From positions 41,912,001-41,976,000 of the forward strand of contig OX597825.1 in NCBI GenBank assembly GCA_951406725.2: a DNA stretch of 64,000 nt, read 5' to 3'. Positions within the stretch are counted from its first letter, which is position 1, and the number at the start of each line of letters is the position of its first letter. Below are positions 1,515 to 60,869 of the stretch, piece by piece. Made by a program: the position numbers and the translations under genes. The notes under the pieces were generated by a model, which worked only from the letters and a program-made list of their open reading frames with translations, ran no database searches and was not told the origin of the DNA. This DNA is from Octopus vulgaris (lineage: Eukaryota).

Positions 1515-1895
1515 TTTCTGAGATGAGGAATTAATATTAGGTACTAGTTGGAGTGGTGTCCTCATCTTGATTGTTGCTTTTAGCTGGACTAATACATAAT
1601 ACAAAAATCCCACATCTCAGAAATATATGACTGTGTTATGCAATTGGAAAGGAATAGACATAAAACATCAATGGAGTTTTATAAGCTTTCACAATTCCCT
1701 CTGACACAGTCTATGGGCTTAGTGTAGTGCATAAAAGTGCTTGATAGTGGAATGCTGTCACCTAGAGATTCTGAGTTTAATCCTGGGTTCACTAAGGTGA
1801 ATCACAAGACACTTGATGAAGGCTAGAGTGTACACAATCAAAATATAGTGAAAGCAACAACCAAGATAGAGACACCACTCCAACTAATACATAAC
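1515..1895. mobile_element. Fold-back element with degenerate hammerhead-like motif
   Basis: 1541-1580 is an imperfect inverted repeat of 1851-1890. The sequence cac-TTGATGA-aggct...c-AAAA-ta-TA-gtg lies at 1810-1850. Confidence 0.55.
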
Positions 1896-2367
1896 TTCTT
1901 AATGTTTCACAAGGGTTGGTCATGTTATATAAGATCTAAGAATAGCTTTAACATATGCCACAATGATACTGCAAGAGTGATATGCAGGCCTAAGTGAACT
2001 TTTTCAAGCGGATTTGTATGAAAGATCTTTCCTTTACCACTAGAAGCATCAATGAGAAGAGTTTTCTTCTTACCTCCAAAGCAATTAATGATGCTGTAAT
2101 TTATTTTTATCTACAAACTGATCCAATGCTTGAATATCATAGTTGATTCCTTAAAAGATATACTGATACTACTGTAGTGGAACATTTCTCTCATTCAACT
2201 TCCATTTCTTCCTTTGGCCTGGGCATCCAAAAGATGCTTTCTGCCAATGTACCTTGGGGATCAATACCCCCAAATTGTGCTGATTCTGTGGAGATTCACC
2301 CAACTCTTGCCGACATGGAAATCAAACTAAATCAATGATGATAATGATGATAATGTGATAGATAAAC

Positions 2368-2445
2368 GGATGGATGGATGGATGGATGGATGGATGGATG
2401 GATGGATGGATGGACAGACGGACAGACAGACATACAGACAGACAT
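2368..2445. repeat. (GGAT)n/(GACA)n microsatellite
   Basis: Read directly. Confidence 0.95.
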
Positions 2446-4576
2446 GTAGGAAACTTATCTATGAAATGAACTAATGCTGCTCAGTTTCAATTCTCAGGAG
2501 TAACTTTATACATCAGTTATATTGTAAATGTTCTTGAAAAGGAATGAGTAACAACTGATAATCTCTCTCATGTTGTGGCAATGTAATATTCTAAGAGAAA
2601 TTGCTTTCATAACAAGCTAACTCCAGCACCATACATGATATTAAATGAAAGATATGTATTCAAGCAAGTTGTGAATAGAATATATTGCCATTTATATTTG
2701 TACCCACAATAAAGCACCATATTCACCCTTACTGTCTTGATACTGCACTCTTTCAATAATGCTTTTTCCTTTTTTTTTTTATATATGATCAACAAGAATA
2801 TATTGATTAAAGTCTCATCTGTAATTACCAAGAGTATTTTGAAATTCTTCCCTAGAGATGAAAATTATTTTAATAACATTTCTGCTAGTCTTGATATTTT
2901 GCCAATTCATATTAATTTATTCTGCAGCAGTTTGGAGAAATGAACAAATTTGAAGCATCAAATGATGTTTAGCATATTTTTGCTTTGCTCATCTAATTAT
3001 TGAATTTTTCTATTTTTCTATTTTCTCCCATAAAATACATTTTAAAATTATCAGTGTAGTCATGTGCTGAAAAAGTCATTTGCTCTATTTCAAAATCTAA
3101 AGCTTTTCTCCTTTCATTTTATTTCATTCTTTATCAATATATCTTAGATCATGTCTCCTCAAGTATGTCTCTTTTCTTTCTTTTTATTGCCTTTTCCAGG
3201 CAATCATCTGCATAGAAATTTTCTCCATAAATTACCTGACTTATTCATGGATTTACTGAAGCAGTTGTGCTATGCTCTGCTTTGTCAAACATCAAGTTAG
3301 TTTGACATCATCACTTGACTCCAAGTCACTCTTATAAATTTATTTAGAGCATTGAAACAATAGAAGTAAATTTTATTTTAGGCTGGGACTTCATCTTAAC
3401 TTTTTGTATGTAAGCAGCAAAAATTTCACTTTACTAGTTTTATCATTCCCCTTGAGAAATACATGAATGTTACAAAATATCCTCCTCCTCTGATAAATTT
3501 GAGGTTCTGAAAGAAATCTCAGAGTCAGTATGTTCAGTATTTAAACAGAAACATTATTAGCTCTGCAATTGCTATAAGAAATCTGCACAAATTCAACCAG
3601 ACTGCTTGTGTCGCTTTTATAATTGATATGACTGTTGAGTTCTGATGAAAATTAGTTAAACTAAAATTTAAAATAGTTAAATATGTTTAAGAGCCATATA
3701 CTGTATTGTTTTTCTTCATATACTATGTTCACAAGTATCAGTGATTATGAGCCATCACTATCCTTTTAGCTTTCTAATTATCACTAAATTTTCATGGATT
3801 TGTCTCCTGTCCTGAAGTTCAGTTAAGATAGCCTCCTATAGTTTTCTGCACATCCTATTCAATATCTGTTTCTGTATCTGCAGTATTGATAAGCTTTTGC
3901 ACCAGTTGATGTTTAAGTTCACATAACAATATTTAAAACTGGGAGCAGTGTATGCTCTTAGGTCTCTTTTCTACACTGGTATTGATAACTACTTTTTCAA
4001 CAATATATATTTGATCTTAATAAAAGCAGTTTTGATCTGATCAACTTCTTTTTTATTGTTAAGATGTAGGATTCAAAGTTGTCAACTTGTTTCAATTAAT
4101 TATACTTGTGTTGGATTACTGTCTCAACATTCAGGAGCTAATTCCATCTCTTGATATATTTCACCAACAGTTGCACACACTTTATGTTGACATTGCCATT
4201 GTTAATGTCATTGTTGTCATCATCATCATCCTCATATTCACTACCACCATCAGCATCATCGTCACCATCATTTAACATCTGCTTTCCATGATAAGTAATT
4301 TGACAGGATTGACAAGTCAGAGGACACATCTCACTTGAATATTTCTGTTTTAGCATGGTTTCTACAGCTGGACACCAACTACATTGCTATATAGTTTGAA
4401 AAGAGATGCTATTTTCCATCTTCTAGCTATCAAGAGAGAAGTAGTTAGTTTAAGTATAACCCCCACCACCCCTATGCAATAAATCCAGTTCTGTTATAGA
4501 AAAGGGAGTTCTAAAATAAAGTAGACTAGAGACTTCTGCCAGAGTTTCAGAGACATCAATTAATAATAATAATAAT

Positions 4577-4788
4577 GGTTCCAAATTTTGGCACAAGGCC
4601 AGCAATTTTAGTGGAGAGGATGACTCAGTTACATCAACCCCAGAGTTCAGCAGGTACTTATATTATCAACCCCAAAAAGATGAAAGAAAAAGTTGACCTT
4701 GGCTCAATTTGAACTCAGAATATAAGGCTGAATGAAATGCGACTAAGCATTTTGCCCAGCATGCTAATGATTGTACCAGCTCACCACC
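4577..4788 (-). mobile_element. tRNA-type SINE, family A
   Basis: Matches the other copies (aaaagatgaaag...aagttgacct...aatttgaactcagaa...ccagctcaccacc). The reverse complement has a B-box-like GAGTTCAAATT. Confidence 0.8.
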
Positions 4789-4794
4789 CTAAAT

Positions 4795-4881
4795 CAATAA
4801 TAACGATAACAACAACAACAACAACAACAACAACAATAATAATAATAATGATAATGATAATAATAATAATAGTAATAATAT

Positions 4882-4912
<31 letters not shown>

Positions 4913-4917
4913 AAGAT
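4795..4917. repeat. (AAC)n/(AAT)n/(AAG)n compound microsatellite
   Basis: Read directly. Confidence 0.95.
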
Positions 4918-5102
4918 AAAAATCCTTCCCAAGTCATAGGACCATTTTCCCAATTTCTGTGGCAAATATATCCTCCCTGGACAGGATGCTGATCCATCAC
5001 AGGTTTACTCATTTTTACCAGCTGAGTGAACTGGAGCAATGTGAAATGAAATGTTTTGCCGTGTTGCAAAGTCAAGGAATCAAAACTACAATCTTACAAT
5101 AA

Positions 5103-5298
5103 TGAATCCCAAATTTTGGCACAGGCCAGTAATTTCACTCAATTACATCAGAACCCAGTTTTCAACTGATTCTTATTTTACTAACCCTGATAAGATGAAA
5201 GCAAGTAAACCTCACCAGAATTTGAACTCAGAATGTGAAAATGGACAAAATGACATGAAGCATTTTGCCTAACATGCTAACAATTCTCTCAGCTCATC
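5103..5298 (-). mobile_element. SINE family A, degenerate
   Basis: Similar to 4577-4788 and 25812-26042. Confidence 0.7.
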
Positions 5299-5304
5299 AA
5301 CAGG

Positions 5305-6345
5305 CTCTACATGAAGAGGGGTAAAGATGGACATGGGCTGATTAGCATACAGGAGCATGTCAACTGTGAAAAAGGAAATATGGCAGAATATTTGGTAAAC
5401 AGCAAACAAGACCTGCTACACTAAGCTGCTAGTGCAGAAGGATTTAACAAAATGGGCTTGAGAGTGCTCCTGAATTCCAATCAAGAACAGCCAATGAGAG
5501 AGAAGAAACCCTATTCCACAGGGAATTACATGGTCAGTTCCACTGTGAAACCAACAAATTAAAAGACCAGGAAGCATCGTGGAGGTGGCTTAACAAGGGT
5601 TACCTAAAAGAGAATACTGAATCATCGCTGCCCAGGAGCAGGCATTGAATACCAACTCAGTGCAAAAGAAGATATGTCACACAAGTGCAACAGACCTCTG
5701 TAGAATGTATAGGAAGTGGGCCAGACGCATGACTCACATTGTTAGTGCTTGTGAAAGTCTTGTGCAGAAAGAGTACAAGTGTAGACATGACAAAGTAACC
5801 CAAAACCTCCACTGGCTATGCCATAAGCATGGATACGAGGCTATGAGTGCTTGGCACCAACATACACTGGAAAAAGTAATGGACAAAAAGGAGAAGGCAA
5901 AAATTCCCTGGGGCTTTGACTTCCAGACAGCACCGAAGTAACCTTTAGGTGGGACAAGCAACTGTGCCTAATAATTGATCTTGCAGTGCCAGAAAATCAA
6001 CATATCATCATGAAAGAAAGAGAAAAGGTTGATAAATATGGATACCTAAAAATTGAGATCGCTAAGATGTAACAGCTATGAGAGTCAAACATAAAGGTTA
6101 TCCCTATTGTCATTGGAGCATTGGGTTCAATACCACTCAGTCTGAAAAAATATCTGAAGACTTTAGACATATCCTACAATCTAGGTGTATTGCAAAAGTC
6201 AGCATTACTTGGAGCTGTATGCATATTGCGTAAAGTATTGTCTGAGGTCCTTGTTGTGATTTGACAAACTGTACAAACCCCCAGTAGACACAATATCTTC
6301 AATCAAGAACCTCATGATATTGTATACTGTGTGTCATCTATAATA
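5305..6345 (+). mobile_element. R4/Dong-like non-LTR retrotransposon 3' fragment (CCHC knuckle plus restriction-like endonuclease), pseudogenised
   Basis: Peptides AAQEQALNTN, CRM...HIVSAC...YKCRHDKV, IIDLAVP...EKVDKY and VIPIVIGALG...LQKSALLG. Ends in TAA repeats at about 6339-6360. Confidence 0.85.
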
Positions 6346-6361
6346 ATAATGATGATAATAA

Positions 6362-6553
6362 TTCACAAGACGTGAAATTTGGGGGAGAGAGAGACAAGTT
6401 GATCACATCAACCTCAGTGCTCAACTGGTACTTACTTTAGGATGAACAGCAAAGTGAATCTTGTCAGAATTTAAACTCAGAACATAAAGAGCTAGAAGAA
6501 ATGCTATTAAACATCTTGTCTCATGTACTAATGATTCTACCAGCTCGCCACCT
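6362..6553 (-). mobile_element. SINE family A
   Basis: Similar to the other family A copies. Confidence 0.7.
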
Positions 6554-6645
6554 TAACAACAACACTAATATTGATAGGTTGTCTCTGAATGTTCACATTG
6601 ACTGTTCATATGTATAGTCACAGTTTATAGTATCAAAAGTAGATC

Positions 6646-8766: not shown

Positions 8767-9030
8767 TATTGTTATACTTGGGTCTTCGTTTCAGCGTCTT
8801 CATTATTATTATTTTGGTTTCTTTGTCAAAGCTCTTTCACCACACATTAAAATGGAATAAGCAGAACAAGAGGAGACATGTAGGATAGGAAGTCACTGAA
8901 GAGGTCATAGGATTTATGATGAAAGAGCTTTGACAAAGAAACTAAAACAATAATAATAGAGCTGAAAAGAAGACCAATATAGTGAGCATGTTTAATTGGA
9001 AAAATATGAACATCCCCAAGTATAACAATA
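8767..9030. mobile_element. Fold-back element carrying a hammerhead motif
   Basis: Inverted arms at 8781-8842 and 8917-8975, with an extra arm pair at 8767-8782 and 9014-9030. Confidence 0.7.
8892..8934 (+). ncRNA. Minimal type-I hammerhead ribozyme candidate
   Basis: gtca-CTGAAGA-g-gtcata(ggatt)tatgat-GAAA-gagc-TT-tgac. Stem I is gtca/tgac, stem II pairs, and the NUH triplet is CUU. Confidence 0.6.
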
Positions 9031-9274
9031 TCTGTTTGAACTCTTAGTTTTCCAAGTATAAATTATGTTGTCTTGAAATTTAGCTGATGCCATCAACCTC
9101 AGCACTTGACAGAAACTTTATTTTATTGACCTCAAAATCATGGAATTTCAAGTTGACCTTTGTAGGATTTGAACTCAGAATGGAAAATTTCAACCACCAG
9201 CTATTTCATCCAACACTCTACTAATTCTACAAATCCTCTGCTCTGTACTTAATTAGTGAGGTCAGGGTAAAAGT

Positions 9275-25449: not shown

Positions 25450-26042
25450 TATTTCTTTATTGCCCACAAGGGGCTAAATATAGAGGGGACAAACAAGGAC
25501 AAAGGAATTAAGTCGATTACATCGACGCCAGTGCATAACTGGTACTTAATTTATAGACCCCAAAAGGATGAAAGGCAAAGTCGACCTCGGCGGAATTTGA
25601 ACTCAGAACCTAAAGACAGACAAAATACCTATTTCTTTACTACCCACAAGGGGATAAACACAGAGAGGACAAACAAAGACAGACAAATGGATTAAGTCGA
25701 TTATGTCGACCCTAGTGTGTAACTGGTACTTATTTAATCACCTGAAAGGATGAAAGGCAAAGTCGACCTCAGCGGAATTTGAACTCAGAACCTAAAGACA
25801 GACGAAATACCTATTTCTTTACTACCCACAAGGGGCTAAACACAGAGAGGACAAACAAGGACAGACAAACGGATTAAGTCGATTATGTCGACCCTAGTGT
25901 GTAACTGGTACTTATTTAATCGCCTGAAAGGATGAAAGGCAAAGTCGACCTCAGTGGAATTTGAACTCAGAACGTAGCAGCAGACGAAATACCACTAAGC
26001 ATTTCACCTGCCATGCTAACGTTTCTGCCAGCTCGCTGCCTT
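25450..26042 (-). mobile_element. Head-to-tail trimer of SINE family A
   Basis: Units start at about 25450, 25630 and 25812. Only the unit ending at 26042 keeps the head. Confidence 0.9.
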
Positions 26043-31140: not shown

Positions 31141-31142
<2 letters not shown>

Positions 31143-31848
31143 AATTTATAAATAAGGATAATATCGATATTTAAATATCAATATTATCAAGTGGCCAGCA
31201 TGGGAATAAATACCATATAAAGGTAATAATTTTTTACAACTATAAATAAGGGTATCTGAGAGACACCACCATGCCGAAATAGCAGTCAAATCCCTGACTC
31301 TAAAAACCACCTAAAATGTTCATATCACACCACGAGATAAGACAGAGGGACAAAATAAACTAGCAAAAAGATATTACTGAATAATTCAAGATCCTGGATT
31401 TCTAGCTTTGCTTCAAATAAGCTCTGCTTTCATCAGTTGAATATACCAGATGGGCACATAAATACAAATACATATATATACAGAACACACATTATACTTA
31501 CATATACGAACGTCCATACATACAAGTATATGCATGTATGTACAAGGCCAGATTCAAATTGCCCGCCAACTACCTCGTAAGCGCGATATGGTCAAAATAA
31601 ACACCCCAGTGAATATAGTGACGAATTATATAAATTTATAAATAAGGATAATATCGATATTTAAAGATCAGGCAATTTGAATCTGGCAATAAATATCGGG
31701 CAATTTGAATTGGCATGCAATTTGAATCTTTTTGCTAGTTTATTTTGTCTCTCTGTCTTATCTCGTGGTGCGATATGAACATTTTAGGTGGGTTTTAGAG
31801 TCAGGGATTTGACTGCTATTTCGGCATCTCAGATACCCTTATTTATAG

Positions 31849-31850
<2 letters not shown>
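31141..31850. mobile_element. Complex fold-back element (inverted plus direct repeats) with a hammerhead
   Basis: Inverted arms at 31238-31372 and 31726-31850. Direct repeat at 31141-31175 and 31631-31665. Flanked by (TG)n and (TA)n. Confidence 0.8.
31384..31442 (-). ncRNA. Type-I hammerhead ribozyme candidate
   Basis: The minus strand reads attcaa-CTGATGA-a-agc(aga)gctt(atttg)aagc(aaa)gct-a-GAAA-tccagga-TC-ttgaat. It has a 6-bp stem I, an intact core and a near-palindromic stem III. Confidence 0.65.
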
Positions 31851-31941
<91 letters not shown>

Positions 31942-37479: not shown

Positions 37480-40130
37480 TGCTTTATATTTGCAATCTTT
37501 CATCCTACACAAGCCTGATCTTCCTACTTCTAATAATAGCCGGTCTGTGGCATTTTTTACATACCCTGCTATGTTGTTTTCTTCTGCTCTAATGCTGTGT
37601 TCACATCCAATAAGTCCTCTTCCCCCTCTTTTTCTTGTACATACAGTCTGTCTGTGTCACTTTTTGAGTGGAGTGATCCATATCTAGTTAGCAACTTCCT
37701 TGTCTTTCTGTCTAAGCTGTTTAGTTCGTCTACTGCCCAGGTGATTACCCCTGCTCCATATCTAAGGTGTGAAACCACCCAGGTGTTGATAGATTCAATC
37801 TTATTCTGTCTGTTTAATTTCACCTTAAGGATCAGTCTCAGTCTGCACAAGTATTCCACCTTAAATTTTTCTATAATTTCTTTCTCCATCAATTTATCTA
37901 TTCCCCAAATCCCCATCTCTACTATTTGCTTCATAACCTTCCCCAACGGTATCATTAGCCCATCCATACATTTGATTTTGACTCTCTTCAAGACTAACAC
38001 ACCACACTTTCTCAGACCAAACTCCATTCTGATATCAGCACTGAAGGTATACACCATATCAACGAGGAAACTGACTTTAGCTTCATCTTTATCATAAAGT
38101 TCGAGATCATCCGTGAATAGCAAATGGTTGACTTTTTGTTTGTGGCTTTTGAATACATACCCAGTTTTTGATTTCCTCAGAATCAGTGTTAGTGGTATCA
38201 AGTACAACACAAAGATCAGTAGGGACAGGCAGTCTCCTTGGAAGATGCCCCTCCTAATTTCTACTGTCCCTAAACTTCTTCCATATCCTCCAATTCGTTA
38301 TACTTTTCCCAAGCAATAACTCAACATTTGATGCAATATCACTCCATAATTTAAGAATGTGGGATCATATTGTATGCTTTATGGTAGTCAATCCATGACA
38401 TGGCTAAGTTACTTTTCCTCCTGTTGCAGTCTCTAAGTACTGTTTTGTCTATCAGGAGTTGATCCTTGGTACCTCTGCACTTATGCTTGCAACCCTTCTG
38501 CTCATGTGGCAGGACTCTATTATTTTCCAAACATTCTTACATTTACTCTGCACATATTCCAGTCAGTAACTTCCACATCAGTGGCAGACAGGTTATCAGC
38601 CTCTAATTGTCTACTGTATTGACTTTTTTGATGTTTATCAGGCACAGCACTGTCCTACCCAATGTCAACCACTCTGGTGTTACTTGGTTGGCATCTAACA
38701 AGGTGTTGAGTTGCTCAGCTATTCGTGCATGACATTCACCAAAACTTTTGATCCAGTAGCCTTGAACTCCATCTGGTCCTGGGGCTTTCCAGTTGCTCAT
38801 TTTTTTGCTGATTTCCTTTACTTCCCTAACTGAAATGACTGATTCTGCCTGTTTTGGACAGACTACTGTTTGTTTCAGTTCTTGCAACCACTCAGCATCC
38901 TTCTTTTGCTCCTTGTCTTTGCTCCAGATTTCACTCCAAAATCTTTAACTTTCAATGTTATCTGGTATCAACATTTCATCTGTACACTCTCCATTTATTT
39001 CTTTATATCTGATCTACTCTGAATAACCTATTCTGGTGGTAATCCTTCATTCTTTGGTCGTATGCTACCATCTTTGCTTTCTTTGCAACGAAGCACTATT
39101 TCAGTTCCTCCATTACTACTTTCAGGACCTTTGTTTCAATATTATACTTCCTTTTCAGTGCCCTGTATTTCTGTTCGCTTTTAAGCTCCTCTTTCTCTTT
39201 TCGGTCTAATACAGGGATTTCCTTCGAGAGCATATCTAACCCTGCCTGGATTCTTCTTTTCCACTATGGATCTTTTCTTTTGTCACTCCCATTATGTTTC
39301 TTTTTCTTGACATCGACTCCCACATTTTCTACTACAACAATACTTGCTGCCTTGATCAAATTATTTGTTTCTGTAATGTTGTTTGTTCTGATGTATTTCA
39401 GAATTTCATTGACATTTTTAATTTCTTGGTTCAATTTCCATTGATCAACTTTTTTAAGGTTGCAAATAATGTCGCTATCATTTTCCTGTAGTCTTACCTT
39501 TATTCTGTCATAGATTGCTTTTTGTTCATCTGTCATGTTGCCATTAGTTTTATTGTCTTCTTTTAGATCATCTATGTCTCTCATCAAATAAATACCACTG
39601 CTCCTTTCCTGTGCTATGAGATTACTCTTATTAGTAAGAACTGCATTTTCCTACTTATCTATGCTGTTATTATCCATGACCCGTCTTTTGATAGCTTCGA
39701 GTTCTACTTCTGTGAACCAATATTTTTTTCTTATTGCTCTATCCTGATCACATAGTCTCTGTTCTGTGAATTGAAACAATCCCTTTTCTCTCCAATTTGA
39801 GCACCATGTTCATCTACCGGGCTGCTCAGGTAGTAACACTCCATGACCACAGCGTTAATTTGCTTGCTCCATCTACGCCATGCATGGTGGTTACTTTCTG
39901 GATATCAACAGGCTGGAGCCAGACCAGAATCTCTGAGCCTACCAGGTGTAACACTGTCACCATCATTGGCTTCAGCTTCATTACCACCGTTATTCACAAC
40001 ATATTTTTTTCCTTGTCACTCATATGAGGTAACAATTATCAGGTTGCGCAATTACCAGTGTTTTTATTGTGATACCATCACTAGATGTATCATTAATCAT
40101 CCCTTGAGGAGGCTCCACCTGTTTCCTTTC
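37480..40130 (-). mobile_element. R4/Dong-like LINE (5' region plus RT), pseudogenised, 3'-truncated
   Basis: NWKAPGPDGVQGYWIK, GIFQGDCLS, HLLFTDDL, MEFGLRKC, INTWVVSHLRYGAGV and LDRKTRKLL. The 5' end abuts (AAT)n at about 40131. Confidence 0.9.
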
Positions 40131-45429: not shown

Positions 45430-46460
45430 ATCAGTGTACTTTCCCTGATTATCTATGAATTCCTTCCATCTATTTACAAGCTTTTTAATCCCATCAGTGT
45501 AAAACTCTTTTGGTTTCAAAGTGAAGAACTCTCAAATGTCAATTTTGACCTCCTCCTTGCTTGCAAAAGTTATGTCCCCCAAATGATTCTGTAAACTATG
45601 AAACAAATGATAGTCTGAAGGAGCAAGGTCGGGAGAATAAGGTGGGTGGTGAGGAATTTTTTCCCAACCAAGCTCTTCGATCTTCTGTGATGTGATCCTG
45701 CTAAGTTACAGTAATGTAAAAACACCAGCATCAGTTGTCTAGTGATGTTGGGGGGACAAACACAGACACACTCCTTTTCAATTCACTAAACCCGATCTTT
45801 TTTTCTTCAAAGCTTGGTTCAAACGCTCTAATTGCTGACAGTAGACTTGAGCATTGATTGCTGCATTAGGTGGTAACAATTCAAAGTGAATTACTACTTT
45901 GCAATCCCACCAGATAGAGAGAAGAACCTTTTTTCCATGAAGTTCCCTTCTTGGTTGTGGTTGAGCTTTTTCCCTTTTACCAAGTCACTGTTTACGATGT
46001 TTAACATTTCGATAGAAGATCCATTTTTCATCACCAGTCACAAGTCTATCCAAAAAGGGTGAAATGAGCTTGTGAGAATGGAGAGAAGAGCAGATGTCAA
46101 CTCGGGATTTGTGGTTGCTTTCAGACAATTCATGAGGCACACATTTTCCAAGTTTAGGAACCTTTCCAAATTGTTGAAGATAATGATGAACAGTTGTATG
46201 GTTTGAACTAAGCTTTATTGCCAATTCTTCAACTGATAATGCAGGATTTTCTTCAAGTAATGCCTCAAGGAGCTTATCATCAAACTCAACTGGACGTCCT
46301 GTTAAATCTTCACCTTCACTTCTGAATTTTGCAAACCATCTTCTGCATGTTCTTTCATTCAAACATTCTTTCCCATAAACTGAGTGTATGTTCCGAGTCA
46401 CTTTGGCTGCAGAGTTTCCTTTTTTGTACTCATAAAGCATTATGTGCCTCAAATACTCTT
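45430..46460 (-). mobile_element. mariner (DD34D-type) transposase pseudogene with SINE fragment insertion
   Basis: HIMLYEYKKG...RWFAKF, VPHEL, LVTGDEKWIFY, LLSIWWD and PPYSPDLAPSDYHLF. A SINE B piece sits at about 45699-45772. Confidence 0.9.
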
Positions 46461-46519
46461 TGCATACTTGATATATGTATAAATATATAAACACTGCAGA
46501 TATGCAGAAAACTAATTCC

Positions 46520-47670
46520 ATCACATGCCAGTGGGGAGAAACTAGAAGAATTTGATAGCTTCCTCTACCTAGGTGACCAAGTCTGCAGTGGGGGTGGGGG
46601 GTGCTCAGAAAGCGTTGCCACTAGAATAAGAATAGCCTGGGCAAAGTTCAGAAAGCTCCTGCCTCTACAGGTGACAAGGGGTCTCTCACTCAGAGTGAAA
46701 GGTAGATTGTATGATACATGTGCGCAAACTGCCATGCTACACAGCGGTGAATCATGGGCCATGACTGCTGAAGACATGCGTAAGCTTGAAAGAAATGAAG
46801 CTAGTATGATCCACTGGATGTTTAAAGTCAGTGTGCACACATGACAGTGTGTAAGCACCCTGAGAGAAATTTTGGACATAAGAGGCATCAGATGTGGTGT
46901 GCAAGGGAGACAACTGTGTTGGTATGGTTATGTGCTGCATATGGAAGAGGAGAGCTGTGTGAAGAAGTGTCACTCTCTAACGGTGGAAGGAACACGTGGA
47001 AGAGAGAGACCCAGGTGGTGAAGCATGACCTTCAAAGGTTGGGCCAATGACAAAAGACTGAGACCTCTGGAGATACGCTGTGACTGAGAAAACCTGGCAA
47101 GTAAAGTGAGATCACAGCCATAGCCTACACCAGTGTCATGCTTGAGGAAGCCTATTGAGTCAAAATCAAAATCAAAATCAAATCAAATCAAATCAAGTCA
47201 AATCAAATCACAATCAAATGGAAATTGTAGTTGTGGCCGATGCCAGTGCTGCCTGACTGGCACCCATGCTGGTGGAACACAATAAGTGCCATTCATGCGT
47301 GGGTCATTGCCAGTGCTGCTCGACTGGTGCCTCGTGCCAGTGGCATGTAAAAAGCACCATCAGAACATGGTCGATGCCAGTTCCCTCGCCCCAACTTGCT
47401 CCTGTGCTGGTGGCATGTAAAAGGCACGATCCAAACGTGGCTGATGCCAGTACCGCCTGACTGGCTCCCATGCCAGTGGCACATAAAAAGCACCCACTAC
47501 ACTATCGAAGTAGTTGGCGTTGGGAAGAGCATCCAGCTGTAGAAACATTGCCAGATCAGATTAGAGCCTGGTGCAGCCTCCTGGTTTGCCAGTCCCTAGT
47601 CAAACCCTCCAACCCATGCCAGTCTGGAAAATGGAAGTTAAACGATGATGATGATGATGATGATGATGAA
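46520..47670 (+). mobile_element. RTE LINE 3' fragment with 3' UTR and (GAT)n tail
   Basis: EKLEEFDSFLYLGD...RIRIAWAKFRKLLPL...VKGRLY...ESWAM and LCWYGYVLHM. The UTR has (CAAAT)n and repeated motifs and ends gttaaacgatgatg. Confidence 0.85.
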
Positions 47671-48056: not shown

Positions 48057-48140
48057 TAAATGGTGGTGTCAGTTCAGACACACATAGCTGGTTGTTTTAA
48101 AACAACCAGCTATGTGTGTCTGAACTGACACCACCATTTA
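48057..48140. repeat. Perfect 84-bp palindrome with no spacer
   Basis: taaatggtggtgtcagttcagacacacatagctggttgtttt|aaaacaaccagctatgtgtgtctgaactgacaccaccattta. Confidence 0.95.
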
Positions 48141-50595: not shown

Positions 50596-50629
50596 CATAT
50601 ACATACATACATACATATATATTTCAAAT

Positions 50630-53600
50630 GCTTGTGCTTCTTTCTCCCCCACACCCTTTGTATGTCTCATTTCCACGTTTAATTTCCTCCCCGCAAGAAT
50701 TTTTTGCTTTCTCCTTGTTATTCCACCATGCTGGACTACAAATCCTACCTCCTCACCCTTCACCATCGCCTAAAACATTACCTCTGCTTACTTCCTTCCC
50801 CCTGCTTTCAGACATCCATTAACCTCTCTTTACTCATTTAAAAAAAAACGCTTCTCCAGCCACATTTCATTTCTCAGTCACTACTTACATCACCACCTCA
50901 TCCCTAAAGGTTTCTGCCTCCATGTCCACCCCACTCTCCACTCTGCTTCATACATCCTACCCATACTCCGTACCACATCTTACCGCCTTATGTGTGCCAC
51001 CATTCGCTCCAATCTCTCTAAAATACATACCATCGACTGCTTTTTCCATCTTTTTCCCCTCTCTGCCACCCTTCCATGCTCACAACACATTGCGTTATAT
51101 AATTCATTTAAATCATCTCTTTCATCAATTTCTTGCCAACACCAAACTTCGTAAACTCCACTCACTCCTCCATTCCATCACATCCGATGCCACTACCCCA
51201 ACTCCTCCACTACACTTCTCCCACCCTGATATGCTCAACCCACCCACACCGAACACCCCTGTCCCTGCAAACCCCCTCACACATCCTCACCCCTCCCCAG
51301 CCTTCCACCAGCCCTACCACCCCTCCTACTTCCACCCTATCCACCCTTTCTACTTCTATTCAATCCACCCCTTCTCCACTTCGGTCTGTTGTTACCATTC
51401 CCCCAGATCTTTCCCTCTTTGTGGCGGAGTGCTCCATCGTCAGTAGGGGTCTGCGTTTCATCCCCCTCACTCCATCCTGTAAGGAATTTCAGACTCGTGC
51501 TGATATCCACAGCTTTGTGCGCCACATTAGATTGTGTGTGCTTTTCCGCGACACTCCACCCACATCAAACGAGGAGGACTGCTTCACTGACCTAGGCCGC
51601 CGACCATCCCAGTGGACGCCTGCTCCTGGCCAGTTCCAAGCAGTGGATCTTTTTGCGGGCGCCTGTCAGCGTGCTTTGGAGCAGTTCAACTTCTTCAGGC
51701 GCCCCCGTCGTCTCAACATCTCCCCAGCCGACGGCGCACTGACATCGTTATTAAACTGGCTGACAAGGGTGGAGCTGTGGTGGTATGGCACGCGGACCAT
51801 TACAGGGCGGAAGCTCTCCACCAGCTCCATGACACCTCCTTCTACTGCCTTCTGTCCTCTGACCACACGCCCAACAGACGGTCTTCTCTACCATCCATGA
51901 CCTCATCTCGACCGTGTCCTTGCCCACCTAGTGGCTCCTCTTCCTTCTTACATCCATGACACCAGTCATGCTCTTCGTCTATTCAACTCTTTCTCCTTCC
52001 CTCCTGGTTCCTCCAAACTTCTCTTTACACTGGATATCCAGAGCCTCTACACTGTGATCCCTCACCACGAGGTGCTGCATGCACTGAAATGCTTCCTGGA
52101 CCTCCGACCCAATCCCTAACCCGACACTTCCACACTTATTCGTCTGGCCGAACTTGTCCTCTCACTCAACTACTTCTCGTTCGCAGCCAAGTTCTACCAG
52201 CAGATCTATGGAGGTAGCCATGGGAACGAGAATGGGCCCCGAACTATATGACCGTTATATTGAAGACGTGTATCGGTGCCACCTCACTCTCCCGCGAACA
52301 TCTAGACTCCTTCCTCTCTTTCGTCAAATCTTTCCATCCTGCCCTCCACTTCTCCTGCACTATCTCTGACACCTCTGTCTCCTTTTTTCACATTTCGGAC
52401 AGTATTCATCACTCCACTCTTACCACCTCCATCCACTACAAACACACAGACTCACACTCATACCTAAACTTCTCCTCCTCCCACCCTAAACACACCAAGC
52501 TTTCTATTCCCTATTCCCAATTCCTCCGTCTACGCAGGCTCTGTAGTGACGACCGTGACTTTGAGACTCAGTCTCAACTCATGGCTCGCCACTTCATCCT
52601 ACGTGGATATCCCTTCACCACTATCCACACCGCCCTTGCCAGAGCACGTTCCGTGGACCGTGCATCTCCAACTCACTATTCTCCGAGCTTTCCGGCATCT
52701 CCAGTCCGACCCGTCCACTTCACACATCTTCCCTAACTGACCCCTCCCCTCCTTCAAACGAGCCCACAATCTATGAGATCTCTTGGTCCACAGCTTCTTC
52801 CCCAACCCTACCTCCCAGCTTGGCTCATTCCCCTGCTCCTGCCTATGCTGCCGCACTTGCCCTTACCTCTCCAACACCACCCTCCTCACCGGCACCCATC
52901 ATCGATCTTATTGCATCATCGACTCCTTCACCTGCTCTTCCAGCAATATCATCTATTGCATCTCCTGCTCTCTCTCTGCCATTCCCTGTACATCGGACAA
53001 AGGGGACGCCACTTGGCTGACCGGTTCGCGGAACATCTCCGAGACATCCGCTTTGGCAATGACACCCCGGTCTCACGCCATTTCCGCTCCACCAGTCTCT
53101 CCTTGCAACACCTGTCTGTGTTCAGATTGTCCTTGCACAGAGGCCATCCGGACTCCCGTTTGCGCCATGAACAGGGATTAATCTTCTCTCTTCGCTCTTT
53201 TACGCCATTTGGGCTCAACTCTTCTCCCCTCTTCATCTAACCTCCCCCCCGACTCCTACTTCTCTTCACTCCTACATCTTTTCACCCCTATTCTCTTTCC
53301 CTCTTCTCTCTTACTCTCTTTCTCTCTGCTCCCTCACTCTCCTTCTCTCCTCTCTCCCCCTTCCCCCCTCCTTCTTCCCACCCAACTCTCCTCTCTTGCC
53401 CTGACTCCTACTTCTCTTCAACCCCTACTCTCTTTCCCGCTTTCTCTCTTACTCTCTTTCTCTCTTCTCTCCTCCTCTCTCTCCTCACATACCCACCTTC
53501 CCATCACCCATAAACCCATCCACCCCTACACATTCCTACTTCACCTTCCCTATCCTTCCCAACCCATCCCATCCCCCCCCCATCCTATCCCACACACCCT

Positions 53601-54130
53601 CCTCACATACCCCACCCTCTGCCTACCCACAAACCCCAACCCTCAGCCGAACCCACACTCCACCTGTGCTTTCCCCACTCTTGCCTCCCCCACCTCCCAA
53701 CAACATCACACCACACCACACTACACCATGCAACATTACACATTACATCACAACACACCACCCACACACCATCCTCACATTTTCACACCTACACAAACAT
53801 ACACACATACGCCCAGACCACCAGCCCTCTTTCACACGCACATACATACTCTCTTATACACACACGCACCTTCGTGTTGGGGGTCGTCTTTACTTTGTTA
53901 TCTCCCCTACTTCCTTCTCGTGTGAGACCCTTCTGTCCGAGTCAGATGCCATGATAGATCATTAGCCACTACACACATTTTTTTCTCTCCTTGTTTTTTC
54001 TATGTCGCTTTCTGTAGAAGAGTGTAGGCTCAAAACGTAAAAGACTTTTTCTATTCCTGAGCGTTATACTAATACATCTGTTTGTTTTCTACACCACCTG
54101 TCTTTGTCTTTTGTTTTTTTCATAAACTCT
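50630..54130 (+). mobile_element. Penelope-like element (RT plus GIY-YIG endonuclease), pseudogenised
   Basis: IVIKLADKGGAVVVW, LPSYIHDT, LFTLDIQSLYTVIPH, VAMGTRMGP, SIHYKHTDSHSYL, SIPYSQFLRLRRLCS, FTCSSSNIIYCISC, LYIGQ...LADRFAEH and PFGLN, followed by a C-rich tail and a terminal repeat region. Confidence 0.9.
54008..54043 (+). ncRNA. Degenerate hammerhead-like motif at the Penelope 3' end
   Basis: cttt-CTGTAGA-a-gagt(gtag)gctc-AAAA-cg-TA-aaag. The core deviates at A6 and G12. Confidence 0.4.
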
Positions 54131-54398
54131 CCCTATCTATCTATCTATCTATCTATATATATATATCTTGTTCGAAGGTTATAATGGACACAGTTTGTGT
54201 GTCGTATAGCTTGCTTAAGGCGATGGCCTCATGGAGCTAATCAGCGACAGCTTTAGCCTTATATCTATAAGACTGCCATATTAATATGGCGATAACAATT
54301 AATTTCCAGTAACACTGCCGTAATCTCTTTTAGAGAGACTTAGTAATTTTAATATTTCTATTATTGAAAACAAGTGGATGTATTCCACCAAAACTAGG

Positions 54399-54577
54399 TA
54401 AATAAAACCTTCGAACAGAGACGATCAGTGATGACACCTGTTGGGTCTGACTACGTTACATTGACAAAGGGCAAATACCCTGAAACGCGTCTGTAACTGT
54501 CTGACTGGCAGTGTCAATGTAACGTAGTCAGACCCAGCAGGTGTCGCCACTGATCGTCTCTGTTCGAAGGTTTTATT

Positions 54578-54579
<2 letters not shown>
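54399..54579. repeat. Near-perfect 68-bp-arm hairpin
   Basis: Arms at 54399-54466 and 54512-54579 with 3 differences, followed by (GATA)n. Confidence 0.95.
54455..54497 (+). ncRNA. Minimal type-I hammerhead ribozyme candidate with U3-A8 core variant
   Basis: gttaca-TTGACAA-aggg(caaata)ccct-GAAA-cgcg-TC-tgtaac. It has a perfect 6-bp stem I, a 4-bp stem II, a palindromic stem III and a GUC cleavage triplet. Confidence 0.75.
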
Positions 54580-54653
<74 letters not shown>

Positions 54654-55004: not shown

Positions 55005-55042
<38 letters not shown>

Positions 55043-55146
55043 TACATACATACATACACAGCTACATACATACATATGTACATAGCTACATACATACATA
55101 AATACATATATATATATATAGATATATATATATATATATATATATA

Positions 55147-55941
55147 TTGGGTAATCCCATAAATAATGTAATATTTTTATGCTTCTTTTTTTTTTCAAAA
55201 TTAAGATAAACAAAGTTCTTTTTTAATCTAAAATATACTTTCCTTCGTTATTTACAATTCTCTTCCATCTATCTGGTAGACTTGCAAGGCCCTTCTTCCA
55301 AAATTCACTTGTCTGTGAGGAAAAATACTCTTCCACTACCGCTCTCAGCTTGTCTACAGAATTCCTATTTCTTCCATCAAAATGATTTTGTAAACTGAGA
55401 AATAAATAATGATCAGATGGAGCAACGTCTGGAATATATGGTGGGAGGGGCATCGTTCCCATTCTAACACCTCCAGCGTTTGGAATGTCATCCTTGCTGT
55501 ATTTTGCTGGGCATTATCCTGGTGGGAAAACACCTTTCATCTTGAAACCAAAGATAGCATACAGGAGCTCTACAGATCTTCCAGGACAAGACTCATCTTC
55601 TTGGCTGTAGTTTCCAGCTCCAAATTTCTGGAACTACCATTGACACTGGCTTATACTTATTATCCTATCTCCATATACTGCATTAATATTCTTCACACTT
55701 TCTGTTGCATTGTTGCCTTTATTAAATTCATAAAGTAAAATATGCTGCCTTTGTCACTTTCATTATAATTTTGAAAAAATAACTGTTAAAATCGAACTGC
55801 ACTCTTCAAAATTTGCTCTAAGTACATGGTAAAATTATTATCTACTTTTATAATAAGTTAATGCAGGTAGTTTATCCCGTCCCCCTCCAACTTTTAGTTC
55901 ATGCAGTTGAAAAAAAAAACATTATTTAAGGGATGACCCAA
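55147..55941 (-). mobile_element. mariner deletion derivative
   Basis: TA-flanked TIRs (TTGGGTAATCCCATAAATAATG / CATTATTTAAGGGATGACCCAA). C-terminal PPYIPDVAPSDHYLFLSLQNHF and N-terminal FYEFNKGNNAT remnants. Confidence 0.85.
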
Positions 55942-55986
55942 TATATATCTATATATCTATTTTTATATCTATCAATCTATCTATCT

Positions 55987-56040
<54 letters not shown>

Positions 56041-57527
56041 AGATAGATATATATATACATATATATAATCTGCCTAAATGATTTGTTTATAGTGTTCAAA
56101 TGTATGTATTCTACTTTAGTTCACTCCTCCCATCGAATGAATATTGCTTCTACAAGAGTACGAGTGTGATATACATCAGATGCTGATGTGATTGCAGAGC
56201 AATGTGAAATGTAGTGTTATGCTCAAAAACGCAACACATTACCTGGTCCAGGAATCGAATCCATGATCTAGTGATCTTGAGTGGAATGCCCTAACCACCA
56301 AGCTATACATTTTCACACACACACACACACATATATATGTAGAGAGAGAGACACACACGCTCACTCTCATATGTGTACACTTACGTATACACATTCACAC
56401 AAAATTTCCTCATCACATTGAACACTTTTTCTTTCACCAAATATTTAAATTGCTAACTTAATTACAGATATTAGGAACTATAGAGATCAACACAGTTTGC
56501 TCTCAAAGGTTATGTGATCAGTAAAATGGAGATTAAAATATCATGAGAGGAAATCCAATCTCCTAGTTGACTAGATTTAACATCACGTTTGTTGGCCATG
56601 TATTCAATTGGTCATACATTTAAACAGACAGTATTCAGAGTGCCTATAGAAGTGTAGCAGACATAATTCCGGCTTGGTCTTCGAAACGAAATCACACACA
56701 CAAACACATGCACACAAACACACACACACACTCACACACACACATGCACACACACACATGCACATGTATATATGCATACTGAGATATAAATACTTACAAG
56801 CACACATACCTACACACATTGACACACACACATGCACACAATCATTTATACATAGTTATCTATATTTTCGGAATATTTCTCCATATTATGCTTCAGTAAT
56901 ATATAACAAATCGAACAGCTGAATCTCCATATGGTCTATGGTCTCAGGAAATAATGTATTATATCTAAGTGACATAAACAATGGGGAGAAATGATCATTG
57001 ATCACTAAACCAGAAATCCTTAGTCTAGAACAATATTAGTGATGATTAAGTTGCATGAAAAAAATGTTGACAGAGAAACAATCCAAGAATTTATAAGAGA
57101 CATTAGTCACTCTAAGATAAAATCTTTATCCATCTTTCAAATATCTTTTCAGTCAAACATATTTTATGTACTTAAATTGGGTAATCTCTAGATGTTATTA
57201 CTGATTGGTAGCAGCTTAATTCCTTTCCATTCCCCATAGAAATGTAAAAAATAAAGTGTTCTCTTCAGTGAGATATAATACAACCTATTAACTATAGTCA
57301 CATCTTTGTAACTTCTTATCCTTTTACTTGTAAAAGTTCACGTAGTAGATGCTAATCCGTACCATGCAACTGTTAGATTTTTGCAAAGATTGAGAAGATA
57401 TTGTAAATTGCAAAGACTTTGCAACCTTGTACCTACCCCTACTAAAACTTCTAAAGTGGATGAATTACTAGAAAATACAAAATAGTTCTTTGCATGAATG
57501 AATGTTTCATAATTCTTCACTTAATAT

Positions 57528-57738
57528 TGGTTTCAAATTTTGGCACAAAACCAACCGTTTTTTGGTGGGGCTGGGGCTAAGTCAGTTAAACCAACTCCAG
57601 TGTTCAGCTGGTACCTATTTTATTGACCCCAAAAGGATGAAAAGCAAAGGCAACCCCAGTGGAATTTGAACTCAGAATGCAAAGATGGACAAAATACTGT
57701 GTAGCATTTTACCTGACAAACTAATATTGATGTTAGCC
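57528..57738 (-). mobile_element. SINE family A
   Basis: Similar to the other family A copies. Confidence 0.75.
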
Positions 57739-58637
57739 ACAACTTGGCATTAGAAGTCCTAGAGCAAGTGATAATGTTTTATGTGAAAACCAACATATTT
57801 TGTGTTCTTCTTAATGCTTATATTCTGAAACTTTGAAGAAAATAATGAAATATGAAATTCACTATGTACATACGTATATATATATGTTTATGGATGTAAT
57901 GTTTTAAATATATTCAACAATCAACAAGAAAGACAGCAGACATAAATGGCAGAATTAAATTTTAAAGTACTTTTTGTCTACATAATATCAAAACAATACT
58001 TTACACAAGATTTTTTGATCATTCCAACATCGAAAATTTTCCATTCTTATACATTAATAATTAGTTTTTTGCTATCACATGCTCTAACAAAAATTCTTTG
58101 AAAATTTGAAGAGCGTCCAGTCTATTTGTTGTTTCTACTTTTAGTAGTTGATTGAGATAACAGTAGGACTTCACTTCAGTCATACTTCAAAACTGTAAAT
58201 TCAAGACAATTTAATTCCTCCTCCTCAACAGCAGCAGCACCACCACCACCACAATCACCATCATTTTATCACCCAATCTACCCTGGTTGCATGGGTCAGA
58301 CAAAGTTTATTGAAGCAGATACTCTATGGACAAATGCTATGCCTGTCATCAACCCTCATCTGCTTCTAAGTAAGTTAAATATTTTCTCATGGCCACACAT
58401 AGTTTTTCTGAATATTAGAAATGAATCAAACTGCCCTAATGACAGGGACACTCATTTACAATTATCATGTGATGTCAAGCCAAGGAGACACAAATATCAT
58501 ATGCATACATACACATATTCACATACAAACAAACATGCACAAACACGTGCACACACACATACATATATATATATAAATAAATATATATAAATAAATATAT
58601 ATATATATATATATATAAATGTATATATATATATACA

Positions 58638-59830
58638 TTGGTATTGGTATTGGCATCCTTTCTGTCTCAGGAGACAATGGAGTTGCGCATAAAGTAGTCT
58701 AGTTCGGCTTTTATATTTCATGTCCTGATACATTTCCTGCTGTGGCTGTGTAGTCCTATCCTGGACAAACACTCCCTCTGGCAGGTACCGCAAATGTAGC
58801 GAAGACTGTTCCTGGCTGGTTGTAGTGCCATAGTCTCTTGTTTACATCTCTTCCTTTCTTTCCATTTCTCCTCTCTCTCTCTGTCACTCCTTTGTATTCC
58901 CTCTTTTACGGTACGTCGCCAATCTCCACGGTTGCCGGCAACTGCCTCCCAACCGCTAATATTGATGTTGCAGGCCTTCATGTCCCTTTTGCAAACATCC
59001 TTGTAACGTAAGATCGGTCTACCCACAGACCTAGTACCCCTAGCAAGCTCTCCATAGAGTATGTCCTTGGGGATTCTGCCATCTTTCATACGGCTAACAT
59101 GCCCAAGCCATCTCATACGTCTTTGTGTGAGGAGTGCAAACATGCTTGGTATTCCTGCTTGCTTGAGGACATCTTTGTTGGGGATATGATTCTGCCATTT
59201 GATGCAGAGGATTTTTCGGAGGCAGCGCAGGTGAAAGATGTTTAGGCGACGCTCTTGCGTGTGTATAGCGTCCAGGTCTCACTTCCATACAGTAGAGTGC
59301 TGAGTACACATACCTGGTAGATCTTCATTTTCGTGGTCTTGGTCAGCTTATTGTTGTCCTAAGCCCGTTTGGAGAGTTGGGCCATTGCAGCAGCTGCCTT
59401 GCCAATGTGTATATTGAGCTCAGCGTCAAGGGATAGGTTGTAGGTGACGGTAGAGCCCAGATAGGTAAACTTCTCCACCTCTTGTAATCTGTGGTCTCCA
59501 ATATGTATGTTTGGGATGTCCGATGTAGCCTGGCCCATGATGTTGGTCTTCTTAAGGCTGATAGCTAAGCCAAAGTCGTTACATGCTTGCTCAAAACAGT
59601 TAATGAGCCTTTGGAGGGTTTCTTTTGTGTGTGTTACCAGAGCGGCATCATCAGCAAATAACATCTCCTTGAACTGGACGTTTCTGATTTTGGTCTTGGC
59701 ACGCAGGCACAAGAGATTGAACAGTTTCCCGTCACTTCTACTGTGCAGAAACACTCCATCATCTGATGTCTGAAAGGCATGTGAAAGTAAGTGCGAGAAG
59801 AAGATGCCAAACAATGTAGGAGCGAGGACA
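58638..59830 (-). mobile_element. RTE-BovB LINE 3' half, 5'-truncated
   Basis: VLAPTLFGIFF, DGKLFNL, EMLFADDAAL, FGLAISLKKT, FTYLGS, RMRWLGHVSRMKDGRIPKDILYGEL and CGTCQRECLSRIGLHSH. Short (ATACCA)-type tail. Confidence 0.92.
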
Positions 59831-59859
59831 TATATATACATATATAAACACATATATAG

Positions 59860-60869
59860 CAAATGAAAGACAGAAGATGGAATATACGAGAATTTATTAT
59901 TAATCACGAAATTGTTTCGACATATCTAACATTGATTCCTCTTGGGTGAGACATTCAACAAGTGGTTCAGGAGCATCTGGTGGTGTAGATGTATCTCGTC
60001 AGTTGATGAATAAATACAACTCATTAAAATGATTGTTCCGCAATGTAACTTTCCGTTTTGTAGAGAGAAAAGCAGCCAGATGGAGGAAATATCTTTGGAA
60101 GATTTTGTATAGCGACTGAAGGAGGATAAAACGAAGTACAGCATTAATTGATCCATACTAAGGTATGCAAAACAAGACAATATAATTTCCAGGAGATGCC
60201 ATCTCTGCTCCGAGGAATCGCTGTCTATTCTGTGCACTAACAAGAAGATGATTAATAGAATTTCTGAACAACTCTCAAGAAGCCTTCATGCAAATAAATG
60301 TACTTTTGCACAATGCACTGAGAATGAATTTTGAGTAACCATTAACTTAACTTAATTTACTTTAAGGTATGGATGACTTTTAACCTCCCCATTCTTATAA
60401 ACCTCAGGTTGATAAATAACTCGCTTTGTGATCATGGGTGCACCAAACCTCATGTGTGCGTATGCTCACATTTTTGCACATGCTTGTATGAGTGAGTGTA
60501 CTCCCACCATGCAGCTTGCCTGAGGGCATTTATGCATCCATATTTGTTAACAGTTCTTTTTAATACTTTTCTTGCTGGTTTGCATGTTCATTTCTTTTTT
60601 GCATCTGTGATTTTATTTTTGATCTTCTATATAAATGAAGATATTTCCTCCATCTGGCTGCTTTTCTCTCTACAAAACTGAAAGTACATTGTGGAACAGT
60701 CATTTTAACAAGTTGTATTTATCACCCAAAGTGATACATCTGCACCACTGGATGCTTCTGAACCAGTTGTTGAGTGTCCCACCCAAGAGGAATCAAGGCT
60801 AGATGTGTCGAAATAATTGTGGTGATTAATAATAAATTCTCATATATTCCATCGTCTGTCTTTCATTTG
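59860..60869. mobile_element. Fold-back element with ~235-bp arms, two degenerate hammerhead-like motifs and a possible GIY-YIG remnant
   Basis: Arms at 59860-60095 and 60638-60869. The minus-strand spacer encodes ...HRIDSDSSEQRWHLLE, weakly like a Penelope endonuclease C-terminus. Confidence 0.75.

Follow-up and report, generated by a model that had tools for sequence, protein, structure and literature searches.

Five unrelated hammerhead-bearing fold-back families in Octopus vulgaris and their likely insertion by Penelope-type enzymes

Fold-back elements and hammerhead motifs in the window

The window analyzed here, a stretch of 64,000 nt from contig OX597825.1 of Octopus vulgaris, contains five inverted-repeat (fold-back) elements and one decayed Penelope-like element (PLE). 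Self-BLAST recovered all five fold-backs within the window, with arm pairs at 1537-1580/1851-1894, 8781-8842/8917-8975 and 31235-31372/31726-31853, and further fold-backs at 54399-54579 and 59852-60095/60638-60877. Each of the five is a copy from its own dispersed repeat family, and all five families carry a type I hammerhead. The families (A to E, in order along the window) are mutually dissimilar, as the original prediction had stated; the best E value in a consensus-versus-consensus comparison was 0.29. That prediction had also placed a minimal hammerhead, intact or decayed, in every fold-back of one recurrent system. Every family does have a hammerhead, and the window copies at 1515 and 59860 are decayed. 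However, three of the hammerheads fall outside the minimal type, and the supposed single system is made up of five separate families, some representing truncated PLE ends and others non-coding units. Contact with microsatellites, described for most of the elements, is clear at 31141 and 54167 and partial at 59860 and 1515, while the element at 8767 has none.

A strict type I descriptor matched the window three times, at 8896 (+), 31436 (-) and 54461 (+), each time inside an element that the original prediction had named, in comparison to one match in 60 block shuffles. When applied to a 0.8 Mb genome sample, the descriptor gave 23 matches against 0-1 per shuffle (8 shuffles), so that the shuffled controls proposed with the prediction reveal an excess of the motif at both scales. 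The consensuses of B, C, D and E pass the same descriptor, as do 20 motif copies of A2, a larger sister family of A; the motif was absent from the other inverted repeats of the window (4/4 tested). It could be argued that these are chance matches in decayed palindromes, or that the elements are MITEs of the DNA-transposon type, given that an Rfam search of the window, one D locus and one A locus returned no hammerhead at E<=10, and that three of the six window elements include no copy passing the strict descriptor. This explanation is extremely improbable and is already refuted by the shuffle controls, by core bases kept across copies (in D, U3 in 34/35 and A8 in 35/35), by the many copies that are single-armed and variably 5'-truncated, and by two families that lead into RT/GIY-YIG ORFs. 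Informal comparison of the stems revealed that D stem I carries a double change at 2 loci and that B differs from its sister family by another. D-like families exchange U3-A8 with C3-G8 as well as stem pairs; D and G are unalignable elsewhere, and homology between them beyond the motif was not detected (score 24, shuffle maximum 24). We conclude that the hammerhead motifs are real and specify RNAs predicted to cut themselves.

The suggestion that a density of about one element per 10 kb is typical was borne out, with 50 insertions in the 0.8 Mb sample, or approximately one per 16 kb. Non-coding families account for 10 of these 50 insertions, and PLE ends and unclassified families hold most of the motifs. 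Extrapolation from the sample would give roughly 80,000 intact motifs genome-wide and, with a genome size that we assume, presumably a total of the order of 10^5 ends with a hammerhead. Schistosomes have more hammerheads per megabase than this genome, though the octopus count is high.

Truncated ends of Penelope-like elements

The family B insertion (8767-9041, plus strand) consists of an inverted arm extending to 8847 and a direct arm at 8849-9041, and represents the 3' end of an old PLE that was autonomous and encoded a C-terminal GIY-YIG endonuclease. Its minimal type I hammerhead (8892-8934, +) passes the strict descriptor, with a predicted cut after 8930. In 14/30 B loci a GIY-YIG sequence lies 100-900 nt upstream on the same strand. 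A young sister family encodes a 1312-aa ORF flanked by direct terminal repeats, and position 9 of its hammerhead is C in each of the 12 variants listed. B copies have variable 5' truncation, fixed 3' ends and an inverted copy on the 5' side.

The same arrangement characterizes family E, whose insertion (59859-60869, +) comprises an inverted arm at 59859-60095 and a direct arm at 60088-60869. This element is a 5'-truncated PLE that, judged by its motifs and target, belongs to the Hydra clade. It contains a broken C-terminal GIY-YIG endonuclease (60092-60331, +) that is 82% identical to the E consensus protein, and the family extends upstream into GIY-YIG with a CxCx5C linker and then into the RT core; the sequence recovered for E does not reach the N-terminus. 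In the E protein the CxCx5C linker and the CxxC and CxH motifs are present and CCHH is absent, TA adjoins 27/34 E ends, and a young Hydra-clade element elsewhere in the genome has a 984-aa ORF. The E hammerhead had been called minimal; its stem II is 77 nt long and position 4 is C. Neither window copy is intact, the left-arm copy (59903-60007, -) being damaged in stems I and III and the right-arm copy (60721-60826, +) by destruction of the core. The idea that the fold-backs are solo termini is correct for these two truncated autonomous PLEs, at 8767 and 59860, and not for the other three elements. Conversely, the non-autonomous option applies to the elements at 1515, 31141 and 54167.

The decayed Penelope-like element, P (50728-54133, +, start approximate), encodes an RT, a C-terminal GIY-YIG and a Cys linker. 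Judging by its motifs, we take it to be of the Neptune type. No upstream terminal repeat of P was found within the window. The motif reported to end this element, at 54009-54043 (+), is indeed hammerhead-like, but the copy is decayed, and position 6 is U in 16/17 sampled family copies.

PLE terminal repeats carry minimal hammerheads (Cervera and de la Pena 2014, PMC4209133). The accessible sections of that paper describe motifs with an extra purine before stem II, a palindromic stem III and a U3-A8 variant, an architecture matched by A, B and P. As here, the motifs reported there mostly occur singly in truncated PLEs, along with opposite-strand pairs 100-700 bp apart; no cephalopod is noted among the minimal hammerheads in those sections. 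In contrast to that minimal type, C and E have a long stem II, and C occupies position 4 in E and position 9 in the young B sister. EN+ PLE insertions include inverted copies truncated at the 5' side and have a tail at a single end (Craig et al. 2021, PMC8557442), and E resembles the Hydra clade, as characterized in the parts of that study available, in its inverted 5'-truncated copy, (TA)n target, CxCx5C, CxxC and CxH motifs and lack of CCHH; it differs in its hammerhead with a 77-nt stem II and in having no tail. Mollusca are listed for the clade, with no cephalopod named in those parts (PMC8557442).

Non-coding families C, D and A

The family C insertion (31141-31853, -) contains 1.08 units (31141-31669) and an inverted arm (31726-31853), and is located within (TG)n/(TA)n. 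The C unit is 487 nt long, tandem and non-coding. Its type I hammerhead is on the minus strand (31384-31442), where it passes the strict descriptor with a predicted cut at 31390. A plus-strand look-alike in this element, CTGAGAGA...GAAA, fails even a relaxed descriptor on the C consensus. The family D element, previously taken to start at 54399, is a fold-back with a hammerhead as described, but its true start is 54167 (54167-54579, +; direct arm 54167-54517, inverted arm 54512-54579). Its hammerhead (54455-54497, +) has canonical helix sizes and a U3-A8 core, with a predicted cut after 54491 and one stem I pair compensated in the window copy. The D unit is 365 nt, likewise tandem and non-coding. 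Arms longer than one unit occur in 11/47 cases for C and 19/42 for D, and at one locus (L026) two intact hammerhead motifs are 364 nt apart. Both monomers are strongly self-paired, with circular-fold z-scores of -7.6 for C and -7.3 for D (30 shuffles).

With head-to-tail non-coding units and one predicted type I hammerhead each, C and D fit the non-LTR retrozymes of metazoans, for which PLEs have been proposed as the mobilizing partner (Cervera and de la Pena 2020, PMC7229834; Li, Clavereau and Pollet 2026, 10.64898/2026.07.22.740005). They share with retrozymes tandem units of a few hundred bases, low GC and self-pairing, C at 487 nt being at the long end of the size range. They differ in being mostly dispersed insertions of 1-2 units with PLE-type inversion and tail, and none of the sequence records that contain D is listed as RNA.

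The family A insertion (1515-1894, +) starts with an inverted arm (1515-1580, minus), followed by a direct arm up to 1894. The A unit is 299 nt and non-coding, and the window copy is ~81% identical to the A consensus. It contains a decayed tRNA-like head (approximately 1716-1790, +), with A and B boxes present in the A consensus, and a decayed minimal hammerhead (1810-1850, +) with C3 changed to U, G12 changed to A and a broken stem II. The majority consensus of A fails the strict descriptor at G12 (17 A and 14 G among 37 copies); we read A at position 12 as CpG decay because A2 retains G in 45/50. A2 likewise has a tRNA-like head, whose score of 61 against 19 genomic tRNAs was reached by 0/300 shuffles. 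The score of the A consensus head was reached by 3/300 shuffles and that of the window copy by 29/300, which is not significant alone. ARAGORN with default settings found no tRNA in 14 loci, and Rfam gave no tRNA match.

A2 copies are monomers that start at the head and leave the ribozyme uncut. Their long end is fixed and is not poly(A), and no target-site duplication was present in the two distinct full copies inspected. A differs from A2 in that its spacer leads directly into the head, in tandem, in 27/29 loci. A passenger with a tRNA-like head is unusual. The nearest counterparts are the SINE-like Sm-alpha and Sj-alpha of schistosomes, in which a tRNA-derived Pol III promoter is followed by a hammerhead (PMC6765202, PMC2770079). 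A shares with them this order of parts and the tandem form; A/A2 differ in their PLE-type minimal hammerhead and inverted, tailed insertions, and A2 in its monomers with an uncut ribozyme.

Could all five families be terminal repeats of autonomous PLEs, with ORF-bearing copies of A, C and D being rare and unsampled? Such an origin is true for B and E. Furthermore, A2 has an open frame that begins with an ATG, crosses the hammerhead and reaches the long end, and A extends this frame by ~25 codons, a pattern that an ORF starting in the terminal repeat would produce. We nevertheless consider this explanation unlikely for the set as a whole. In C and D, arms continue across the junction between units and become longer than a single unit, and the spacer of A runs straight to the head. 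Among the A2 arms that reach the head start, 0/31 extend upstream into shared sequence (an inverted arm precedes 21 and unique DNA precedes 10), and none of 53 A2 long ends runs on into shared sequence. The longest open frame was 236 aa among 150 scored matches of 38,343 A2 candidates, and no ORF was detected behind A2 in 20 loci chosen for the longest frames. One longer protein that came up is a host gene model rather than a PLE, and a PLE endonuclease near an A2 copy (locus L312) is a separate insertion.

Insertion geometry and a proposed mechanism

The 3' ends point outward in 85/87 inverted loci. In all families except E, the arms of a locus usually differ in where they stop, each using one of two fixed sites; by manual count, pairs of one short and one long end occur in 11/14 loci for D, 13/15 for C, 18/21 for B, 18/19 for A2 and 8/12 for A, the pairing in A alone being not significant (p 0.19). 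The loci examined are the best matches to each family query rather than random copies. E fold-backs have one 3' end only (4/4), and therefore a two-site model does not cover E. The unequal fixed ends are the "tail" signature of PLEs, and the fold-back is their published insertion structure. Arms start within 3 nt of the cut site in 0/42 cases for D, whose query disfavored such copies, and in 1/47 for C, about as expected by chance. Where inserted copies end is not determined by ribozyme cleavage.

A fold-back could also arise from a single priming event, in which the cDNA folds back and copies itself and an endonuclease trims the second end, generating the tail. The tail is ascribed to endonuclease resolution in PMC8557442, the long arm contains the short one in 10/13 C, 9/18 B and 4/11 D loci, and many A2 inversions start at the head start. 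This course of events seems rather improbable to us. Neither arm is contained in the other in 19/42 paired loci (7/11 for D, 3/13 for C and 9/18 for B, some of the B calls being weakened by fragmented alignments and a short reference), and therefore these insertions are not the product of simply copying one arm. At one locus (L005) there is no overlap whatsoever between the arms.

We favor two independent priming events. A Penelope-type enzyme would nick both strands of AT-rich DNA, and reverse transcription would be primed at each nick from either of two internal start sites, which lie downstream of the hammerhead and are separated by 40-95 nt. The two cDNAs would terminate independently and be joined head to head, usually via a few shared bases, leaving a fold-back whose arms differ in length. 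The template for C and D would be a circle or an uncut multimer, because the arms traverse an intact ribozyme and exceed one unit. The closest experimental parallel is the green anole Poseidon, for which both strands are cut and extended and cleavage is dispensable in vitro (Frangieh et al. 2024, PMC11167929). Poseidon resembles the present families in its tail, which is defined by two internal RT start sites, its AT-rich targets and its use of both strands; it differs in being autonomous and demonstrated in vitro, and in its tail of 30-40 nt in comparison to ~40-95 nt here.

The proposed link to PLEs holds for all five families. With high confidence we read them as families unrelated to one another, B and E being truncated PLE ends and A, C and D non-coding hammerhead units, all likely inserted by Penelope-type RT/GIY-YIG enzymes. 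Comparison of A, A2, C, D and G with five PLE termini revealed nothing shared beyond low-complexity matches, which also account for two high z-scores, and no A, C or D terminus lies in register with the ORF at the Hydra and B-sister loci.

PLE hammerheads, inverted insertions and retrozymes are already published, and no new kind of system is present here. Our literature search found nothing on cephalopod hammerhead families or PLE-driven SINEs, and ribozymes are unmentioned in the accessible part of an octopus repeat paper (PMC13282606); Dfam, Repbase or an octopus library may name these families. So far, the case for mobilization of animal retrozymes by PLEs has been built on co-occurrence and on similarity between terminal repeats. 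The two-ended insertion footprint that an autonomous PLE and non-coding families have in common in one genome provides more direct genomic support, and the Hydra-clade and B-sister ORFs are enzymes with which such mobilization can be tested.

For A/A2 we tentatively propose, as a possibility short of probable, a SINE-like class that is mobilized by Penelope enzymes instead of LINEs, in which a tRNA-derived Pol III promoter is combined with a PLE terminal repeat and the short transcript is inserted by two-ended priming with its hammerhead uncut. The tRNA-headed family could then add PLEs to the list of SINE partners. If true, and taken with the altered cores of young autonomous families, this would make the PLE hammerhead mainly a binding or priming module, with cleavage optional.

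The D copy in the window is oriented opposite to the outward 3' ends that the mechanism leads one to expect: its 3' ends point inward, the only such case among 30 D loci.

The finding put forward in the original prediction is real, yet it is a mixture of known things, namely truncated ends of Penelope-like elements (PLEs) and non-coding hammerhead units, which have a common insertion footprint. Of most note are a tRNA-headed family and a sign that ribozyme cleavage leaves the insertions unshaped.

Fold-back families and predicted hammerheads

Self-BLAST recovered all five inverted repeats predicted in the window, starting at 1515 (A), 8767 (B), 31141 (C), 54399 (D, true start 54167) and 59860 (E). 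They lack mutual similarity, as had been claimed, and the five family consensuses, based on 30 loci apiece, are unrelated to one another. The host genome is large (2.8 Gb) and rich in microsatellites; the dispersed families behind A, B, C, D and E yielded 343, 1191, 2633, 1677 and 2624 first-look candidates, respectively, 40 of which were scored per family.

A hammerhead had been assigned to all five elements. A strict type I descriptor matched the window copies of B, C and D but not those of A and E; these three matches compare with one in 60 block shuffles. The consensuses of B, C, D and E satisfy the descriptor, and that of A fails it because, of 37 copies, 17 have A and 14 have G at core position G12. 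This position is a CpG site in A, and a larger sister family, A2, retains G in 45 of 50 copies. The predicted hammerhead of D has canonical size and a U3-A8 core, that of C lies on the minus strand, and that of E combines a stem II of 77 nt with C at position 4 (24 of 32 copies). No Rfam hammerhead model matched these motifs (E≤10) in the window, one D locus and one A locus.

The window also carries a perfect 84-nt palindrome without a hammerhead (48057-48140), adjoining (TA)n and unmatched in ~2 Mb of other loci. Also present in the window (25450-25993, 37569-38297, 45985-46620, 58718-59925) are a 182-bp repeat in three tandem copies, two decayed fragments of a LINE RT and part of a mariner transposase.

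Coding and non-coding families

The suggestion that the fold-backs are solo termini holds for B and E, which are ends of autonomous elements, and that of non-autonomous elements fits the non-coding A, C and D. Followed upstream, the E consensus enters a GIY-YIG domain whose linker is CxCx5C and then an RT core, and the broken end of this domain sits in the window spacer at 60092-60331. These protein motifs agree with the Hydra clade as described in PMC8557442. A young Hydra-clade PLE (L295 2296-5248, L296-L305) has an intact 984-aa ORF and, within its terminal repeats, a hammerhead with a 60-nt stem II.

Of 30 B loci chosen by their upstream flank, 14 are preceded, at 100-900 nt and in the same orientation, by a GIY-YIG. 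B has a young sister family (L396 2278-6213, L366-L398) with a 1312-aa ORF flanked by direct terminal repeats; its CX4CxxC linker makes it Neptune or Nematis by published clade definitions. Young sister copies have C instead of A at hammerhead position 9, a change that can be expected to impair cleavage. The RT motifs of the sister suggest Nematis. The remaining element, P (about 50728-54133), is a decayed PLE bearing its own terminal motif (54009-54043). This terminus is very common (14 insertions in a 0.8-Mb sample), and core position 6 is U in 16 of 17 copies of the family.

The tandem units of C (487 nt) and D (365 nt) are non-coding, and as circles they fold far more strongly than shuffles. 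C and D arms run across the unit junction and exceed one unit in 11 of 47 C and 19 of 42 D arms. At the DNA level, C and D match metazoan non-LTR retrozymes as described in PMC7229834 and bioRxiv 10.64898/2026.07.22.740005. In the window D copy (54167-54579) the 3' ends point inward, and a (CTAT)n tract on one side faces a (GATA)n tract, inverted relative to it, on the other; this copy may be what is left of two insertions in opposite orientation after loss of the centre. Outside the window, a further family, G, forms a 359-nt tandem unit in (TA)n (L151 / L234 4100-6800) with five direct and two inverted intact predicted hammerheads; its motif architecture is D-like, homology to D being absent elsewhere.

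The tRNA-headed family

The 299-nt unit of family A contains A and B boxes, and A2 aligns to it with a score of 95 (shuffle maximum 26). Compared with 19 genomic tRNAs, the score of the A2 tRNA-like head was reached by none of 300 shuffles, that of the A consensus by 3 and that of the window A copy alone by 29. In A2 the head is followed by an (AAT)n linker, a predicted minimal hammerhead and a fixed end. Since none of the 31 arms reaching the head start extends into shared upstream sequence, these copies derive from RNA starting at the head. An open frame runs through the A2 hammerhead, and no ORF-linked copy was found among 150 scored of 38,343 candidates. A and A2 likely came from a PLE terminal repeat; the closest case described is schistosome Sm-alpha (PMC6765202, PMC2770079).

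A2 (L306-L335, L419-L438, L211-L213) is absent from the window, contributes four insertions to the 0.8-Mb sample and is often inverted at the head start. Its hammerhead region encodes ~36 N-terminal residues of an Octopus sinensis gene model (P0003), a cysteine-rich receptor-like protein, which may reflect exonisation or mis-annotation.

Insertion footprint and genomic density

The footprint was examined at 181 loci, after removal of six duplicates and with one single-armed A2 duplicate left in. Inverted loci numbered 87, and in 85 both 3' ends point outward, the exceptions being the copy of D in the window and a single C locus, which probably represents an internal palindrome. Arms terminate at one of two set distances past the predicted cut site: about 175 and 238 nt in D, 155 and 251 in C, 103 and 160 in B, 52-77 and 102 in A2, and about 47 and 84 in A; E has a single end. 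One arm ends at each site in 11/14 D, 13/15 C, 18/21 B, 18/19 A2 and 8/12 A loci (pooled 68/81, p 2e-10 against even odds). The paired ends of A-D and A2 correspond to the tail described for PLEs in PMC8557442. In anole Poseidon, two internal RT start sites account for the tail (PMC11167929); the Poseidon protein cuts and extends both strands, ribozyme cleavage being dispensable in vitro. Neither arm is nested within the other in 7/11 D, 3/13 C and 9/18 B paired loci, so two priming events are required, at least at those loci. C and D junctions are mostly flush or share a few overlapping bases. Arm 5' starts were not enriched at the predicted cut site, a sign that ribozyme cleavage does not shape the insertions.

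Density was sampled in eighty 10-kb stretches (0.8 Mb) at round-number positions. Fourteen of the stretches held a total of 23 strict motifs, and each of eight shuffles gave 0-1; this density of about 29 per Mb, to which one array contributed seven motifs, extrapolates to roughly 80,000 genome-wide. With decayed copies included, 13 references found 66 motif-spanning copies, equal to 50 insertions in 36 stretches; as five references were drawn from the sample itself, the insertion density is about 56-63 per Mb. The density of the window is typical, its six elements being ordinary against 50 insertions in 0.8 Mb. A/A2, C, D or G account for only 10 of these 50, and 156 strict matches in 2 Mb of mostly targeted sequence fell into 19 motif clusters.
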